DNA of 64,000 bases from the IMG/VR virus record IMGVR_UViG_3300035034_001216, positions 1 to 64,000 of that record; one strand, given 5' to 3'. Both the position numbers and the translations under genes were made by a program. This stretch comes from a virus. The notes under the pieces are model-generated. The model ran no database searches and was not told the origin of the DNA. It saw only the letters and a list, made by a program, of their open reading frames with translations. Shown piece by piece: positions 6,935 through 64,000 of this stretch; within the stretch, counting starts at the first letter, position 1; every line of letters starts with the position of its first letter.

Positions 6935-8131
6935 ATGACTATAAGTAATATAAAAAGTTATTTAAAAGAAAGAACTGGATATCTTAAGAAAGGAGCTTCT
7001 GCTCTTAAAGACATTCTAGAAGCACAAGGGTTCGAGGTAACAGAAGATGACTGTTCAATAGCTCTTACTGAAACTCGACAGGAGTTTAAAGATGCATCAG
7101 TAGCTGAGACTACTACAAACTATTACCAAGTGTCGGGAGAAGACCAGAAACACATGCCTTCTTTTGATCTTAACGAATACAAGCCTTTAAAGATATGGGG
7201 TAAAGCTGGAAACTGGTCAGCGTCTTATGAACTTAAGAGTGATGATGAAGACGAAGAGCTAAAGAAATTTACAACAGAAACGATTGCCAAGCTTAAAGAT
7301 TACGTAGACAATAGACCTAAACCTAAAAAAGCAGAAGCTGAAGGAAAGGAAATAGGACATGTTGTTATTACAGATCTACACATTGGTGCGCAAGTTGGAA
7401 AACTTGTTAATGATACTGAGAACTACTCAATCGAAAAAGTAGTAGAATACTTGGACGAAGTTGCTAAACAAATAAATGACGAAAACTATGGTGAAGTACA
7501 TATTTCTATACTGGGAGATTTAATAGAATCATTTACTGGGACTAATCACCCTGCAACATGGAAAGAACTTTCTAATGTTGGTTATGGCTCTAATGTTTTA
7601 ATTATAGCCTACGAGATTCTAAACGCATTTCTATCATCTATCAACAATCTAAACACTGTTTATATGGTAGGTGGTAATCATGATAGGATTACACAAAAGA
7701 ATAATGAAGATCCTGAGTTAGGGGTTGCACATACTATTGCTCACTTCTTAAATTCTAAGCTAGATGCAAATGTATTTTATAATCATATGATACTCTCAGC
7801 TACAATTGATGGTATTGATTATATACTTACACACGGACATCTTCCTTTGATTAAAAAGAATCCCGAGTACTTAGTATTGAATTACGGAAAGAACAGAGAT
7901 AACTTTACAATGATATTATCAGGACATCTACACAGTAGAGGTAAAGTAGATCAAGTACGAACTAATACATCTACAGTTGTAGCAGACAATAAGAAGTATA
8001 GAGCATTAGTTTGTCCTAGTATATTTACTGGTAACTTCTATTCAGAGTCTATGGGATTCTCATGTTCACCGGGATTTGTAACATTTGAAACTAAAAATGG
8101 AAAACCAAGAGTAATAGATACTACTCTATAA
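6935..8131 (+). CDS. Calcineurin-like metallophosphoesterase
   Basis: TDLHIG, LGDLIE, GGNHD, THGH, SGHLHS motifs. Confidence 0.9.
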   Translation: MTISNIKSYLKERTGYLKKGASALKDILEAQGFEVTEDDCSIALTETRQEFKDASVAETTTNYYQVSGEDQKHMPSFDLNEYKPLKIWGKAGNWSASYELKSDDEDEELKKFTTETIAKLKDYVDNRPKPKKAEAEGKEIGHVVITDLHIGAQVGKLVNDTENYSIEKVVEYLDEVAKQINDENYGEVHISILGDLIESFTGTNHPATWKELSNVGYGSNVLIIAYEILNAFLSSINNLNTVYMVGGNHDRITQKNNEDPELGVAHTIAHFLNSKLDANVFYNHMILSATIDGIDYILTHGHLPLIKKNPEYLVLNYGKNRDNFTMILSGHLHSRGKVDQVRTNTSTVVADNKKYRALVCPSIFTGNFYSESMGFSCSPGFVTFETKNGKPRVIDTTL

Positions 8132-8141
8132 AGATTAAATA

Positions 8142-8825
8142 ATGGATACATTAAATCAGATAGCACAAGATATTTTAGGTATAGTCAAAGCCAAACGGGT
8201 TGATGATTATAATGTATCCGCTGCTCAAGTTAAACGATGGATTAATTATTCACGAGCGCAGTTTATAAAGAATGAATTAAATAAAAAGAGAGCAATCGAC
8301 GAAGACTTTATACAAGATCTTGGTTGTGTGGATTTAGAAAAAGTTCCTGATGCAGAATGTGGACCATCCTGTATTACTTTAAGAACTTGTAAAGAGATTC
8401 CTGCTCCTATAATTACAAACTTAGGTCTGGCAATAACAAGAGTGGGCCCTGTGAAGATTCTTTCACGGGCTTTCTCTTTTGTTCCATATAGACAAGCACA
8501 ATGGTCAGGTAATGGTAGGTTTGCTAACAAGCAAATATTTGCTTACTACTTAAATGGTTATATTTATATTAGAATTACTAAAGATCATACTTTAGCTAAA
8601 GCTCTTAAAGTTATAAACATACGAGGTGTATTCGAAGATCCTGAATCAGTTAATGAGTTTGACGATTGTGGTGGGTCATTATGTTATGATAGCGGTACTA
8701 AATACCCTGTAAAGAAATGGATGATTAACTCTATAATTAATCAAGTGCTTGAAGAAAGATTTGGTATTGTTGAGCGAGCTACATTAGATAATAAAAACGA
8801 TGAGGGAGACACAATGGAAGTATAA
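8142..8825 (+). CDS. crAss-type tail ring protein
   Basis: Position before IHF-like, tubular and stabilisation genes; YYLNGYIY and IRGVFEDP...YP pattern typical of crAss ring proteins. Confidence 0.7.
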   Translation: MDTLNQIAQDILGIVKAKRVDDYNVSAAQVKRWINYSRAQFIKNELNKKRAIDEDFIQDLGCVDLEKVPDAECGPSCITLRTCKEIPAPIITNLGLAITRVGPVKILSRAFSFVPYRQAQWSGNGRFANKQIFAYYLNGYIYIRITKDHTLAKALKVINIRGVFEDPESVNEFDDCGGSLCYDSGTKYPVKKWMINSIINQVLEERFGIVERATLDNKNDEGDTMEV

Positions 8826-10112: not shown

Positions 10113-13100
10113 TGGCAAAAGATACTCAAGTAAACACATGGGAAGGTGGAATGAATAAGGACATAGCTCCTCATAAGATGCCACCTAATACATACTTTGA
10201 ACTTAGAGAAGGTAAGGTAATTACATCTGAACAAGGTAATAGTTATGGTATATCTCCAGTCAAAGGTAATAAGAAAGTCTTTGGTATTCCGAGGATCCCA
10301 GCAACATTTATACTAGGACAAACTGAACAAGAGTTTGCTACTGTCTCAGTAATATTTGTAGATTCAAATGGTGTTACACAATTTGTTATTGCATTTCAGT
10401 TACCAGAACAACCTTTAGAATCATTATATTTAGCTCTACTTGAACAGACACCTATCTCAGATGGTATAGCAGATGGTTCATTAAGTATTCAATATTCTGA
10501 AGATTATAATACTATATATATAACATTAAATAATGAAGACCCTGTCAACCAAGTTACTGTTCAAACAGGAGGTACTGTTACAGTTATAAGTCAAGAACCT
10601 CATTCACCTGAGATTATAGGTGGTGGTGATTTCAATGATGACTTTGTTATTTTTACTACATCTGAAAATACATGGGGACAAATATGGTTAGCTCTATATG
10701 ATGAAACTAGTGAGACTATAACTAATGTAGACGGTGACGGTAATTTACTATTAGATCAAAGTACTCTTAAATACAATGGTCCTTTAAACTTATCTAAAAA
10801 TACTCCTATAAGAAGAGTTAAGTCTGTTATAGAAGTTCCTAATGAGTATGGCTCTATCTATTGGACTGATGCTTTAAATCCCATTAGAGTATTAAATCTT
10901 TATGATGATAAGTCTTTAAATATTCCTATAGGTCAGTTATCATTACAGACTAGTACTACTTTTGGTAATCTACAGATTAATAAAATATTATCTACTGGAA
11001 CTTTACCATCAGGATCTACTGTACAATTTACTTATAGACTTGTATCAGAATCAGGAGCGAAAACTCAATACGCACCTTTAACAGGATTAGTTCCTTTAAC
11101 TGATAGTAATTCTTATCAAATTGGTGATGAATACGAAGGTACAACTCAAGATGAAAATACTCTTGTTAATAAATCAGTAAGTCTTGATATATCTAATCTT
11201 GACACTAGTTATTCAAGAATAGATATAGCAGCAGTAGTATATAGATTCCAAGGTATACCTGAAGTATTTTTAGATGTAGATATAGCTATTCCTGGTAATA
11301 GTAATATTAATTATACATTTACAGGAAACAACAGTTCTAATATAGATGTATTAGAACTTAATAATAGTTCAGCTCAAATAGTATCTGCAAATGATTTGGC
11401 AGTTAAAGATAATAGATTAATAGCATTTGGTATTAAAACAAGACCTGATGATTTAGATTTTGAAACTAGAGCTTTATCTTTCAGAAGAGCTACTACTGGT
11501 GAATTTACTAATGAATGGGTTAGTAGTGTATACAATAATATATCACAAGAAGGTATAGGTACATTTGATTATACTTCATTAAACAATGGTACATTAGATA
11601 TGCCATCAGAAACTTCGGATTGTATTAATCCATCATGGATTACTAAAAAAGATAATCTAATAGGAGGCTTTAATGATGAAGGTACTGTTAACTTTTCTGA
11701 TGAAGGTATACAATGCTTTAATCCATTTAATTCTGTTCAAGGAGGATGGGGACCTAATATAAGCTTCAATTTAATAGGTGCAGAATTAATAGCATTCCCT
11801 ACTCTTAATAGTTTTAATAATAATCCTGGAACTTTTAATGGAGAATTAGAATTGCATGAAAATGAAATTGTTAATTTTTCAGGGGAAATAGCTAATTTTA
11901 AATCACCAAAAGTATCTGCATATCTTAAAGGATATAAGCGTGGGGAAACTTATAGATTTGGTATTAAATTTTTTGATAAATATGGAGTACCATATCCTGT
12001 TAAATGGATATGTGATTATAGATTTCCAGATCAATTTAATAGGGGTGATTTAGACGAAGTACAATTTAGAACTAGACTTTTATATAGTCCTGGAAATGAA
12101 ACGGTAGTAACACCAAATACATTTGATATTACAAATAATGATTTTTCTAACCAAAAATCTAATTTAGAATCATTTGGTATTAAATTTGAAATAAACAATT
12201 TAGATCAAATACGAGATAAAATTTCAGGCTTTACAATAGTTAGAGCCGAGAGGGATATTAATGATAGATCAATATTAGCAAGTGGGTTATTAAACCCTTC
12301 TGTAGAAAGAGATGGATTTAATGGTGATAAGGATATAATAGTACCTACCAGTCCTGACTTAACAACTTTATATGCAATGGATGGAGGAGGAAGTGATCCT
12401 ATTACTATTAATAAAAGAAATCTTAATTTCACAACACCATTATCTCATAATTTAAATGAAGATATTAATTATTCTGAAGGTGATTATCTAGTAGTTACCA
12501 ATCGTATTAGTTCGTTATTAACGGCTTCAGATGATACAGATGGCTTTACATTACAGACAAGTACGTTATATGGATTTTCTACTAATAGTATATCTGCATA
12601 TCAAATATTACCTTTAAGAAAATCTAGATTCAAATCATTTGATGATGTTTCTACTTTTAATCCTAATACATCCTCTCCTAGTAATCATATAATATTTCCT
12701 AATAAAAATGAATTACCATTACCACAAACAACTAGTGGTTCAGGTAACGTAGGGTATGTAGCCAATATTTTAGGATATGGAATGACAGCTGCTGATGAAG
12801 TTTTCAGAGTTACTTATAATTCAACTACAAATAAACATTGGTTAAATATTGATGATGATGAAGATGGTTTAGTAGTATCTAATGAACTTAACGCTGATAG
12901 AGGTTTATATTTCGCAGAATATTGCAGAGATATATACGATACCCAATATGGGGGGTACACTTATCAATCTAGACAAAACAATACTTCTTACATAGATTGT
13001 AGTTCTTTTGTAAATGCAAATAAAGATCAAGTTGAAGTTAAAGTATTTGGAGGGGATACAACAGTACATGCATGGGATGTTTATTGGGGTGCTTTCAATT

Positions 13101-61924: not shown

Positions 61925-62688
61925 TTATTTAATAGGGTTAACTATTTTTTCAACTTCATTGATATAATAATTATAATTGACATCATAATCTAAAAAATCA
62001 ACTTGTTGAAAAAATTTATTAAAATAAGTAACAAGATATTTACTTTCTACTTCAAAAGATCTGTCATCTACAAATACACCATCAAATAGCGTATTCTCAT
62101 ATACAGATTCTTTCCCTTCAAGAGGTGGCATTTTCTTTATTAGTTTTTTACCATGATTAGAAATATAATACCTTACTGTTTTACTAGCTTTCTCTACTGT
62201 TTTATCAGAACTTAAAACATCTTTTAAAATGTAATGAGATCCTTTATTAGATTTAACTGCTTTACAAAAGTCATATATGTCGTCACATTCATAAATAGTC
62301 TTTTTATAGTCTATATTATGAACGTAATAATCATATATTGCCTTTGCTACAATTATCATAGAATGATTCTTATGAGGCTCACGGTTATAATCATACCAAC
62401 CTTTAAGTTTCACTCTATCGTCTACTTTTTCATTTCCAGTTTTGATTGCTAGGTAATTATTTACATTACTCATAACAAGTAAGTCATAAAACGTTTCTTC
62501 TAAAACAAATTTCGTTTTATTTTCCCATTGTCTTTGTAATGATCTAAATTCATCTAACCTTTCTTTACTAAATAGTACAACTACACCATCAGTATTAGCA
62601 GATAAAACAGAAAATCCTGATATATCAAGATCTTCTATAAGCATTAACAATGATAATTGACCAATAGTGGTCGTTTGGATTGTTACTA
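61925..62688 (-). CDS. polB: Family B DNA polymerase, 3' exon (C-terminal palm and thumb)
   Basis: VTIQTTTIGQLSLLMLIE...SANTDG...VNNYLA...KLKG, RYYIS match crAss PolB; the frame continues upstream of the track's TTG to the predicted 3' splice site (62689/62688) and hits TAA just beyond it. Confidence 0.88.
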
Positions 62689-62721
62689 CTTACCACACTC
62701 AGTCACCTGAGCATAATAAAA

Positions 62722-63354
62722 TTACGTTAATTTATCAGCAACTGTTTCTCTGTTGAATATCCATATTTTAATGAAATTTCTACTGTTATTATTATAAGCA
62801 GGTTCTGTACATGTTTCGCACATTTCAGTAAGACATCCATCTAATATTGCCCATTCATTTGTCACACCTATCGGTTCATTTTTTGTACTTTGTCCGCCAG
62901 AAGTCATGTTGGTAGATACTAGAGTAAAAGCTGGACATTTTGTTAGTATCCTATCAAGAATCATATTTTGAAAAACCCATTTTATAAGTTTTTCTTCTAT
63001 AAATTCTTTGTTATACAAAACACCTTTAAGTTCAGAAATCATATTAGGTATTAATGTCGCAGATGAGTATTTTAAAGATGGATTATCTCGAGTCCCTTTC
63101 AAAAATGAAACTATTCTGCGAGATTCTCCATAAGCTGAGTTGATACCTGACATTTGGAGAGCACCACATGATATGTCAGTGCCTCCTACTCCTAAATGTT
63201 TATTGCCTGAGTAATTTATTAGTTCTTTAATACGAGATAAAACTTCAGGATTATCTTTTAATGTCTCAGGCGTTAGCTTTGAACTTTTTTTTTCTTCTAC
63301 TTTTAGTACTTTCAATTTGCTCATAATAAATTGTTTTTTTTGTTTTGATTTCAT
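62722..63354 (-). CDS. Intron passenger gene in the P9 region (hypothetical, no homing-endonuclease motif)
   Basis: ATG 63354 (or 63324) after an A-rich leader; SCGALQMSG...NNNSRNFIKIW; no HNH, GIY-YIG or LAGLIDADG signature seen. Confidence 0.75.
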   Translation of the reverse strand: MKSKQKKQFIMSKLKVLKVEEKKSSKLTPETLKDNPEVLSRIKELINYSGNKHLGVGGTDISCGALQMSGINSAYGESRRIVSFLKGTRDNPSLKYSSATLIPNMISELKGVLYNKEFIEEKLIKWVFQNMILDRILTKCPAFTLVSTNMTSGGQSTKNEPIGVTNEWAILDGCLTEMCETCTEPAYNNNSRNFIKIWIFNRETVADKLT

Positions 63355-63385
63355 AATTTTATTATTTGTAGTCTGGACCATCTCA

Positions 63386-63697
63386 TCAACCGCATTCAAT
63401 GTCACATGTAGGACTATTAAGTCCACATTTACATTTAATTTTAGGTTGCTCGTTGTTGGCCTCTACGCCGTTTTCTAATTTTTCACATAAACTAATAACT
63501 TCTTCATCATCACCATAAGCGCATAATGCTTCTAAAATTAATTTAATGTCTTTATTATCAAGTGACGGCACGGGATTGTCAAATTTTTTAAGTACTATTT
63601 TACAAAAGTCTACTTCAAATTGCTTTTGGAGATCTTCTTGAACTGCTTTTATATAATCAGGATTTTCATCTGATTGAAATTGTACTATAATTTTCAT
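63386..63697 (-). CDS. Intron passenger ORF overlapping the ribozyme core (hypothetical, 103 aa)
   Basis: ATG after an A-rich leader in L5; open through P5', P4', P6, P7, P3' and P8; TGA at the P8'/J8-7 junction. Confidence 0.55.
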   Translation of the reverse strand: MKIIVQFQSDENPDYIKAVQEDLQKQFEVDFCKIVLKKFDNPVPSLDNKDIKLILEALCAYGDDEEVISLCEKLENGVEANNEQPKIKCKCGLNSPTCDIECG

Positions 63698-63723: not shown

Positions 63724-63896
63724 TTAGCTAATATTAAATTCTGTTAAATATTTACATTCTGATTTTTTACCACCACATTTAATTATCTCATATCTTTTTG
63801 ATAATTTACAATTACATGATGGTGGTCCACAATGTGAACCGGGTATATAACTTCCATTACCACACCCATCATCATAATGTTTACATTTTTTTTCAT
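63724..63896 (-). CDS. Cys-rich intron passenger ORF in a P3.2-like loop (needs A9 rather than A8 after the ATG)
   Basis: ATG-A8, then frame CKHYDDGCGNGSYIPGSHCGPPSCNCKLSKRYEIIKCGGKKSECKYLTEFNIS* with TAA at 63726-63724; as written the ATG frame gives only 37 aa. Confidence 0.45.
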
Positions 63897-64000
63897 AATT
63901 TTAATATTAACCCCTCTTTCGAGGATTCCGAGTTATTCGAAGTACATTACTGTACTAAGCCGCTAGTTTGACTTTATTATTAAATCGTTTTAAGAATATT

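Follow-up and report, generated by a model that had tools for sequence, protein, structure and literature searches.

The window analysed here comprises the first 64,000 nucleotides (nt) of a 72.5-kb virus record (IMG/VR record IMGVR_UViG_3300035034_001216). Close to its far end, on the minus strand, a gene for a family-B DNA polymerase (polB) is split by an insert of 2522 nt (genome 65210-62689). Judged by comparison with its relatives, the insert is a group I intron, of a family whose ORF-laden members go undetected by the Rfam model. The 3' part of the intron contains an open reading frame (ORF), ORF-E, in a loop closed by a 14-bp helix, P9.1, which pairs the start region of the ORF with its stop region. 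Our preferred reading, to which we give a probability of about 0.62, is that P9.1 is a closing helix of the ribozyme that has an architectural role and also gates translation of ORF-E. The features of the region are collected in Table 1.

An interrupted DNA polymerase gene and its intron core

The N-terminal piece of the polymerase (384 amino acids (aa), genome 66339-65185) matches PHROG profile phrog_1252 at positions 52-425. The C-terminal frame, which opens at 62689, matches the same profile from its third residue, and the junction brings profile positions 425 and 427 together. Removal of the insert joins ...CCGU (ending at U65211) to UAGUAACA... (from 62688) to give YDPLVTIQTTTIGQ, and restores YDPL|VTIQTTTIGQ, like the intact homologues P0007, P0008 and P0010, which read YDP(L/M)VT(M/L)..TT.TGQLSLLML across the junction. 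G62689 is the sole G position that restores YDPL-V-TIQTT in frame, and a terminal G is likewise present in the four related introns L036, L016, L017 and L018. Of the 43 related loci with both polymerase pieces, 38 have them separated by at most 22 nt; an equally long gap at the same polB site was found among these loci only in L036. No intron-less form was found in DNA contigs of four sequencing runs, and these contigs are identical to the window where they overlap it. None of the runs listed as containing the sequence is an RNA run. From the junction sequences, we infer that the insert is spliced out.

A model of the intron was built by comparing the window with L036, L016, L017 and L018. L036 is the closest relative, with a polymerase that is 78% identical and the same insert. 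L016 (identical to L035), L017 and L018 have polymerases that are ~40% identical, and carry the same core at another polB site, FGTG|GIHG. When the 46 modelled pairs were scored across the five introns, all 230 of 230 cells were canonical; 14 pairs vary in a compensatory manner, 6 on one side only and 26 not at all. The compensatory changes in this five-intron set are located in P1, P2, P3, P7, P9.0 and P9.2. They include two in P3 of L018 (CUUC/GAAG) and one in P7, which also has one one-sided change. In P9.2, four of the five compared pairs have compensatory changes, and the loop is GNRA in all introns. P5 has two compensatory changes relative to L036. The block spanning J8/7 and the 3' strand of P7 is identical in L036, and covaries with the 5' strand of P7 in L016 and L017.

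Additional evidence for a group I core comes from the guide strands and the pseudoknot. P1 is CCGUUA/UAGCGG, with a U-G pair at the 5' splice site, P10 is UAGU/ACUA, and the two guide strands are contiguous. The guide sequence follows the exon, with GCGG opposite CCGU in the window and GCCC opposite GGGU at the second polB site. P3 and P7 form a pseudoknot in which P7 consists of G63463-C63375, a bulged A63462 and then G63461-C63376; the G-C pair beside the bulged nucleotide in P7 is the G-binding site of group I introns. When the 1287-nt 3' part is folded without constraints, P2, P4, P5, P6, P8 and P9.2 are predicted at probabilities of 0.75-1.0, except for the outermost P2 pair (0.47). A further pointer to a group I intron is the LAGLIDADG gene located within the L017 insert (E 8.6e-33).

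The Rfam model RF00028 matches a compact relative, L080, over the full model (47.3 bits, E 8.3e-11) and gives it the same helix assignments, with P9 as CUAUAUG-GUGA-CAUAUAG. The L080 blocks aligned to the RF00028 consensus include P4 and P4'/P6 (AACGGGGAAAC, AAUCCCGUGCC), and the block homologous to J8/7-P7 of the window (GAGAUGGUCC) is aligned to consensus J8/7-P7. The covariation, the guide strands, the terminal G and the L080 match together bear out the group I assignment made in the original prediction. An 18-mer, GACAAUCCCGUGCCGUCA (P5'/P4'/P6), is unchanged in 29 IMG/VR loci and was the first exact core pattern to give any match in that database; the other exact core patterns gave none. 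Scans for loci with the polymerase C-terminal piece alone, ORF-E alone and an ORF-E alignment likewise found no match. The intron family is present in at least 31 loci, and the two polB sites are among its insertion sites. An exact J8/7-P7 17-mer had 19 matches in GTDB genomes, 10 of them in Rhodothermales beside tRNA (transfer RNA) genes; these were dropped, being within chance expectation by estimate and having no RNA family at the sites. IMG/VR contig L074, on which this intron family is present, also carries other introns recognized by RF00028, at 7002-7233 and 8177-8325 on the minus strand (55.2 and 45.3 bits).

A helix that closes the ORF within P9

The helix pairs 63365-63352 (AUAAUAAAAUUAUG) with 62726-62713 (CGUAAUUUUAUUAU) through 13 Watson-Crick pairs and one U-G pair on the minus strand, and is real as first described. 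Its arms contain the AUG (63354-63352) and the UAA (62724-62722). The gene, in which the quoted peptides SCGALQMSG and NNNSRNFIKIW are present, is therefore looped out exactly, and the 3' strand of P7 (63379-63375) is brought next to the GUGA hairpin (62712-62697) and the terminal G, as had been proposed. An independent repeat search found a perfect 12-nt inverted repeat (62713-62724 and 63354-63365) with arms 629 nt apart, beyond which the two extra pairs of the stem are U-G and G-C. Among 4000 random pairs of 40-nt windows, drawn 300-700 nt apart from the same genome, 14 or more contiguous pairs occurred in 2 and 12 pairs in 19. The stem is found in both the minimum free energy (MFE) and the centroid structure, with a predicted probability of 0.85-0.95 in a 703-nt context.

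In compact members of the family, P9 is a simple hairpin directly after P7, without an ORF; this arrangement was seen in 14 of 29 loci. The P9 of the window has an extra arm inserted into the 5' strand of this hairpin, giving the order P7', AG, ACUAC, AA, the 5' arm, the ORF, the 3' arm, GCUCAG-GUGA-CUGAGU, GUGGU and AAG. The stem is a side branch, P9.1, that forms a three-way junction with P9.0 and P9.2, and this junction is predicted in both the MFE and the centroid structure.

Evidence for the helix comes from relatives, in which it is conserved by covariation. Lack of conservation, which the original prediction had named as a refutation, was not observed: in nine distinct introns, the ORF is closed by a corresponding helix of 9-14 bp, AU-rich and unrelated in sequence. 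L036 retains 12 pairs and shows two compensatory changes (U-A to C-G and A-U to U-A) and one wobble change, and two further helices of 6 and 9 bp extend the pairing towards the AUG. With the position of the AUG expressed in nt from the distal end of the helix, or of the composite helix, the nine introns are the window (14 bp, AUG offset -3), L036 (12 (+6+9) bp, +6), L016 (13 bp, +3), L017 (9 (+10) bp, +4), L018 (13 bp, -1), L075 (11 bp, -2), L088 (13 bp, +1), L090 (14 bp, +4) and L091 (13 bp, +22). The AUG is thus at most 6 nt from the distal end in eight of the nine. The stop codon is in or overlaps the 3' arm in seven, the exceptions being L017 and L075. The G-U pairs of these helices are confined to the sense strand. 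The tally covers introns other than L078, L083, L093, L097 and L099, whose 3' ends are not resolved or were wrongly assigned; in L075, L088, L090 and L091, the helix is clear and the true 3' splice site unmapped.

A second pairing is available to one strand of P9.0. ACUAC (63368-63372) can pair perfectly with the terminal G and UAGU of exon 2 (62685-62689), replacing GUGGU. This ACUAC/G|UAGU pairing appears in the MFE structure once exon bases are included, and is impossible in L016, L017 and L018.

Architectural role, translational gating and competing explanations

By looping out 630 nt, P9.1 would bring the outer P9 helix (ACUAC/GUGGU), the GNRA-capped P9.2 and the terminal G to within a few nt of P7, which is the geometry that exon ligation needs. 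An architectural role is proposed on the basis of this anatomy and of the known features of group I introns, for if the helix were absent, P9.2 and the terminal G would lie 630 nt away from P7 and P9.0.

Translational gating would follow from the composition of the arms. The ORF fills the whole loop, and the arms are therefore made of its own A-rich leader and AUG, on one side, and of its stop region, on the other. The suggestion that the folded intron hides the initiation site is supported in part, in that both the AUG and the A-rich leader are paired in the helix-formed state. A Shine-Dalgarno (SD)-like 4-mer was found in 2 of 45 long ORFs, compared with 6.5% of random 15-mers, and ORF leaders are 42-69% A. 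In a phage without SD sites, initiation should therefore need an unpaired leader. The modelled probability of being unpaired, over positions -15 to +5 around the ORF-E AUG, is 0.34, and is lower in just one of 22 other ORFs. Burying the A-rich leader and the AUG would probably block initiation. In this model, the folded, splicing-competent P9 would shut ORF-E, and a ribosome completing ORF-E would have to unzip the helix. ORF-E could be expressed only until the 3' arm had been made and had paired, and the spliced-out, folded intron would be translationally silent. We put gating by the helix at about even odds. If it does occur, translation and the splicing-competent fold would exclude each other directly, in a system that lacks SD sites.

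Several observations weigh against this reading. The first group concerns the intron itself: Rfam gave no group I match in the window, even with E values as high as 10 admitted, nor in L036, nor on this element in 10 further loci, and the L080 score is 2.7 bits under the gathering cut-off of 50. The helices of the comparative model were registered by hand, so the pair counts lean towards the model. The second group concerns the predicted stability of the stem, whose probability is only 0.15 in the 1287-nt context, where an alternative lower by ~5 kcal/mol extends the GUGA hairpin and pairs the 3' arm with GUGGUAA. The z-score of the entire 716-nt fold is just -1.59. The third group concerns gating, since a second in-frame AUG, at 63324, lies outside the helix, and the proximity of start and stop to the closing helix may reflect a tightly packed insert. 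The remaining points against gating are also arguments for a purely structural helix.

The alternative that survives best, although we consider it clearly less probable than a helix with both roles, is that P9.1 is structural only. The helix would close the insert and restore P9, the buried AUG would have no regulatory effect, and the ORF would be translated co-transcriptionally or hardly at all, whatever the helix does. Closing helices are a general way in which intron ORFs are tolerated, and the other inserts of this intron, namely the P1 extension, the P3-P4 insert and P5, are all closed by similar helices, while proximity of AUG and stop is expected when an ORF fills its loop. The stem is AU-rich and energetically weak, its duplex energy of -16.9 kcal/mol being equalled by 68 of the 4000 random pairs. 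The 5' arm is transcribed ~630 nt ahead of the 3' arm, leaving the AUG free meanwhile, and in L036 and L091 the AUG lies 24 and 22 nt, respectively, past the first helix. However, in eight of the nine introns pairing covers the upstream half of the region bound by the ribosome, and the phage relies on A-rich, unpaired leaders. Moreover, translation of phage T4 I-TevI from within its intron impairs splicing, as described in part of PMC3073962.

It is very improbable that the arms are a DNA-level feature, with terminal inverted repeats of a mobile ORF cassette in place of a selected RNA helix. The ORF-E family occupies three loops and is also free-standing, so the cassette has moved, and inverted repeats bound each insert. 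However, the arms of same-family cassettes (in the window, L036, L088, L090 and L091) share only AU-richness, equivalent helices enclose different cargo genes at the same P9 site, and the arms abut P9.0 and P9.2 in fixed register. The G-U pairs would be mismatches in DNA, and a transposase is absent.

Slightly less probable still is a model without splicing, in which the polymerase is truly split into two polypeptides with unrelated genes between them, and in which the stem would be a local structure in the mRNA of ORF-E. Some T4-like phages have split polymerase genes, and Rfam calls no intron in the window. Nevertheless, the first start codon available to the C-terminal piece would cost it 13 conserved residues, and its frame is open as far as a stop at 62692-62690. 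The junction restores the consensus exactly, and both covariation and the L080 match to Rfam back the group I core. Chance complementarity, for which one could cite a genome G+C content of 31% and the unexceptional duplex energy, is already contradicted by the comparative data, with 14 bp reached by just 2 of 4000 random pairs, compensatory changes in L036 and equivalent helices in eight other introns, and we regard it as negligible.

Cargo genes, related systems and further features

No match to ORF-E itself was obtained in Pfam, PHROG, NCBIfam, PADLOC or PDB sequences. For ORF-E and 13 relatives, searches of Pfam, PHROGs, NCBIfam, PADLOC and PDB gave no LAGLIDADG, GIY-YIG, HNH, His-Cys, PD-(D/E)xK or VSR-like match. 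The L036 counterpart is 26% identical to ORF-E. A word-based protein search recovered only ORF-E, while a full HMMER search found one relative, P0123, which has an N-terminal DUF6501; a repeat-protein match in the same search was judged spurious. With tblastn and a family hidden Markov model, members were found in 13 of the 31 loci (one of the 13 being a duplicate contig and one matching the N-terminal domain only): seven in P9, four elsewhere in the intron and two away from the core motif. Near-invariant residues of the family are S-C, N, I and W. The two copies in L093 and L033 look free-standing, with no core motif within 3 kb, in answer to a question raised by the original prediction; the gene adjoining the L093 copy has no Pfam match. 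The original description of ORF-E as an ordinary, non-nuclease phage protein holds in that no nuclease motif was found, but the family recurs in introns and as free-standing copies, unlike a chance passenger. Its distribution, across three different loops and as free-standing copies but missing from other introns, is that of a mobile intron-associated gene. A Foldseek search of PDB with an AlphaFold model of ORF-E (three sequences, mean predicted local distance difference test score 52) gave nothing at E <= 0.001. The ESM Atlas yielded unnamed clusters only, and residues 57-204 of a homologue from Cellulophaga phage phi14:2 weakly resemble GNAT acetyltransferases in structure, below the bar; this possible resemblance is the sole structural clue, and is a lead only.

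The phi14:2 genome (NC_021806) deserves particular mention since this is a cultured crAss-like phage of a flavobacterium that carries the same intron family, with an ORF-E family member, g028, inside a 13-bp P9 helix. Genes g026-g028 (L103, NC_021806 14323-15735) occupy the core and P9 ORF region, just upstream of DnaB (g029). This putative intron differs from that of the window in that it lies beside DnaB and not in polB, and its ORF has an N-terminal DUF6501. Genes g026-g028 are annotated as hypothetical, without an intron feature; PolB of the same phage is annotated as a joined coding sequence (CDS). The phi14:2 member makes splicing, gating and protein function testable at the bench.

A stem of this kind is how a group I intron would be expected to accommodate an ORF, and concealment of the start of an intron ORF by RNA structure is known from phage T4. 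There are parallels with the T4 intron ORFs, which also lie in peripheral loops of phage group I introns with RNA structure hiding the translation start. The I-TevII ORF of T4 is located in P9.1. In T4, a local hairpin within the loop hides the SD site, and a late promoter gives a shorter, open transcript. In the window intron, by contrast, the start is hidden by a closing helix that belongs to the ribozyme and acts over a long range, joining the leader and AUG to the stop region of the ORF; an SD site is absent, and no internal promoter could free the AUG. A scan for sigma-70-type promoters was uninformative, with 13 sites against 9.1 expected. T4 intron ORFs encode GIY-YIG or HNH nucleases, whereas ORF-E matches no nuclease family. 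Early translation of I-TevI disturbs splicing, according to parts of PMC2988022 and PMC3073962. What is less ordinary here is that the hiding helix belongs to P9 and is built from the start and stop regions of the ORF itself.

Self-splicing introns at conserved sites of phage DNA polymerase genes are also found in SPO1, Bastille and other Bastillevirinae. The part of PMC11878797 consulted gives an average length of 802 +/- 342 nt for the Bastillevirinae introns, most of which have one CDS or none, the CDS being an endonuclease. The window intron, at 2522 nt, has four ORFs of at least 100 aa, and relatives reach 3.9 kb. The P3-P9 topology is that of the RF00028 consensus, from which the family differs in its short P3 (4 bp), in large inserts in L1, P3-P4, P5, P6, P8 and P9, and in the failure of the model to detect the window copy. 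ORF-D, whose frame crosses P5'-P4'-P6-P7-P3'-P8, and ORF-E, with its start and stop in P9.1, resemble the ORFs described under "core creep". Table 1 of PMC3073962, a source seen in part, lists core overlaps of 9, 56 and 81 nt, compared with which ORF-D overlaps essentially the entire 3' half of the core. ORF-D has counterparts at the same place in L036 (142 aa), L016 (116 aa), L018 (134 aa) and L017 (69 aa), and just 23 codons in L080. The RNA blocks that encode its peptides DNPVPS and (L/Q)NGVE are the most conserved ones.

The literature searched described neither this intron family nor DUF6501, nor any multi-gene group I intron of a phage, and the supplements of PMC11878797 and PMC7886860 may list similar introns. 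A broader proposal, which we regard as tentative and rather unlikely, is that these are an undescribed group of cargo-rich group I introns in Bacteroidota-type phages, with slots in L1, P3-P4, P5-P8 and P9 for exchangeable genes, each gated by ribozyme folding through a closing helix made of its own start and stop regions, and that the ORF-E family is a new kind of mobile gene associated with introns. If so, the ORF-E family, often with an N-terminal DUF6501, would be either a homing enzyme with a novel fold or an accessory protein, not a nuclease, that travels with introns. The loop protein represents a recurrent, uncharacterized family with the distribution of a mobile gene and no nuclease signature. 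An intron family that escapes the standard Rfam model would also leave polymerase and other replication genes of such phages mis-annotated as fragments.

Other members of the family carry other cargo. L017 has a 3.9-kb intron with seven ORFs of at least 50 aa, including a LAGLIDADG_2 endonuclease gene (10378-11076, E 8.6e-33) between the 5' strand of P7 and P3'; this is the only intron with a recognizable endonuclease. A second recurrent cargo family of 168-194 aa, with the motif PSGCG ... AGFKE, has no Pfam match, and hhalign gave a probability of 0.2 for its relationship to the ORF-E family. A kinship of ORF-B with a 254-aa ORF of L016, suggested by eye, was withdrawn (BLASTP E 1.2).

Table 1. 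Positions of intron, exon and cargo features (window coordinates unless a locus is named)
Feature	Position	Strand	Remarks
Exon 2, C-terminal piece of family-B DNA polymerase	61925-62688	minus	phrog_1252 427-651; first four bases UAGU (62688-62685) form P10
Terminal G (omega-G)	62689	minus	3' splice site directly after
P9.0 (outer P9) 3' strand GUGGU	62692-62696	minus	pairs with 63372-63368; one compensatory change in L018 (ACAAC/GUUGU)
P9.2 hairpin GCUCAG-GUGA-CUGAGU	62697-62712	minus	GNRA tetraloop; pairing probability 0.99-1.0
P9.1 3' arm	62713-62726	minus	holds stop UAA 62724-62722
ORF-E, 210 aa, 633 nt with stop	62722-63354	minus	loop of P9.1; motifs SCG, STN, NPNSxN.I.W
P9.1 5' arm	63352-63365	minus	holds AUG 63354-63352 and 11 nt of A-rich leader
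P9.0 5' strand ACUAC	63368-63372	minus	
J8/7 and P7 3' strand	63375-63386	minus	J8/7 AUGAGAU 63386-63380; P7 GGUCC 63379-63375
P8 and loop	63387-63448	minus	CAACC 63448-63444 / GGUUG 63391-63387; pairing probability 0.99-1.0
ORF-D, 103 aa	63386-63697	minus	frame crosses ribozyme core, P5 loop to P8
P3 3' strand, J7/3, P7 5' strand	63449-63463	minus	CGAG 63452-63449; G63463, bulged A63462, GGCC 63461-63458
P6 and loop, P4 3' strand	63467-63575	minus	GCCGU 63569-63565 / ACGGC 63471-63467; UCCCGU 63575-63570; probability 0.9-1.0
P4 5' strand, P5 and loop	63579-63724	minus	ACGGGG 63724-63719; P5 63714-63707 / 63586-63579
P3-P4 insert	63727-63924	minus	window-specific relative to L036; CCUC-GAAA-GAGG hairpin (0.99-1.0) and second arm
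P3 5' strand, P2 hairpin	63929-63967	minus	CUCG 63932-63929; P2 63956-63941 with GUAA loop
Internal guide sequence	63960-63967	minus	P1 strand 63965-63960; P10 strand 63967-63964
3' arm of P1 extension helix, end of ORF-B	63969-64000	minus	helix arm 63969-63976
PSGCG family ORF, L016	5403-5909		in P9.1
PSGCG family ORF, L017	11121-11678		in P9.1
PSGCG family ORF, L018	3840-4367		
PSGCG family ORF, L033	7729-8313		

The second arm of the P3-P4 insert is closed by an AU-rich helix of 10-12 bp (63909-63900 / 63738-63729) that contains a perfect 10-nt inverted repeat, and the sole ORF inside the insert has 37 codons. At the same site, L016 and L017 have a small ORF-less module, L018 has two ORFs and L036 has nothing. 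The 5' 1210 nt of the intron (genome 64001-65210), with ORF-A and ORF-B, lie past the end of the window. The P1 loop (genome 63969-65210, minus strand) holds ORF-A (147 aa) and ORF-B (291 aa as listed), and is closed by an 8-bp helix between the start region of ORF-A (65197-65190) and the region just past the ORF-B stop (63969-63976); L036 has a different 7-bp closing helix at the same place.

Two observations concern the wider genome and its relatives. A twister-P1 ribozyme-like match lies in the same genome outside the window (L002 12334-12385, minus strand; genome 72334-72385), with 30.8 bits, a gathering cut-off of 67.2 and E 0.0024. The polymerase relatives P0044, P0045 and P0058, and locus L033 (4897-6987), are interrupted inside motif B (...LNGG|), and the gap in L033 holds an ORF judged GIY-YIG-like by eye alone.

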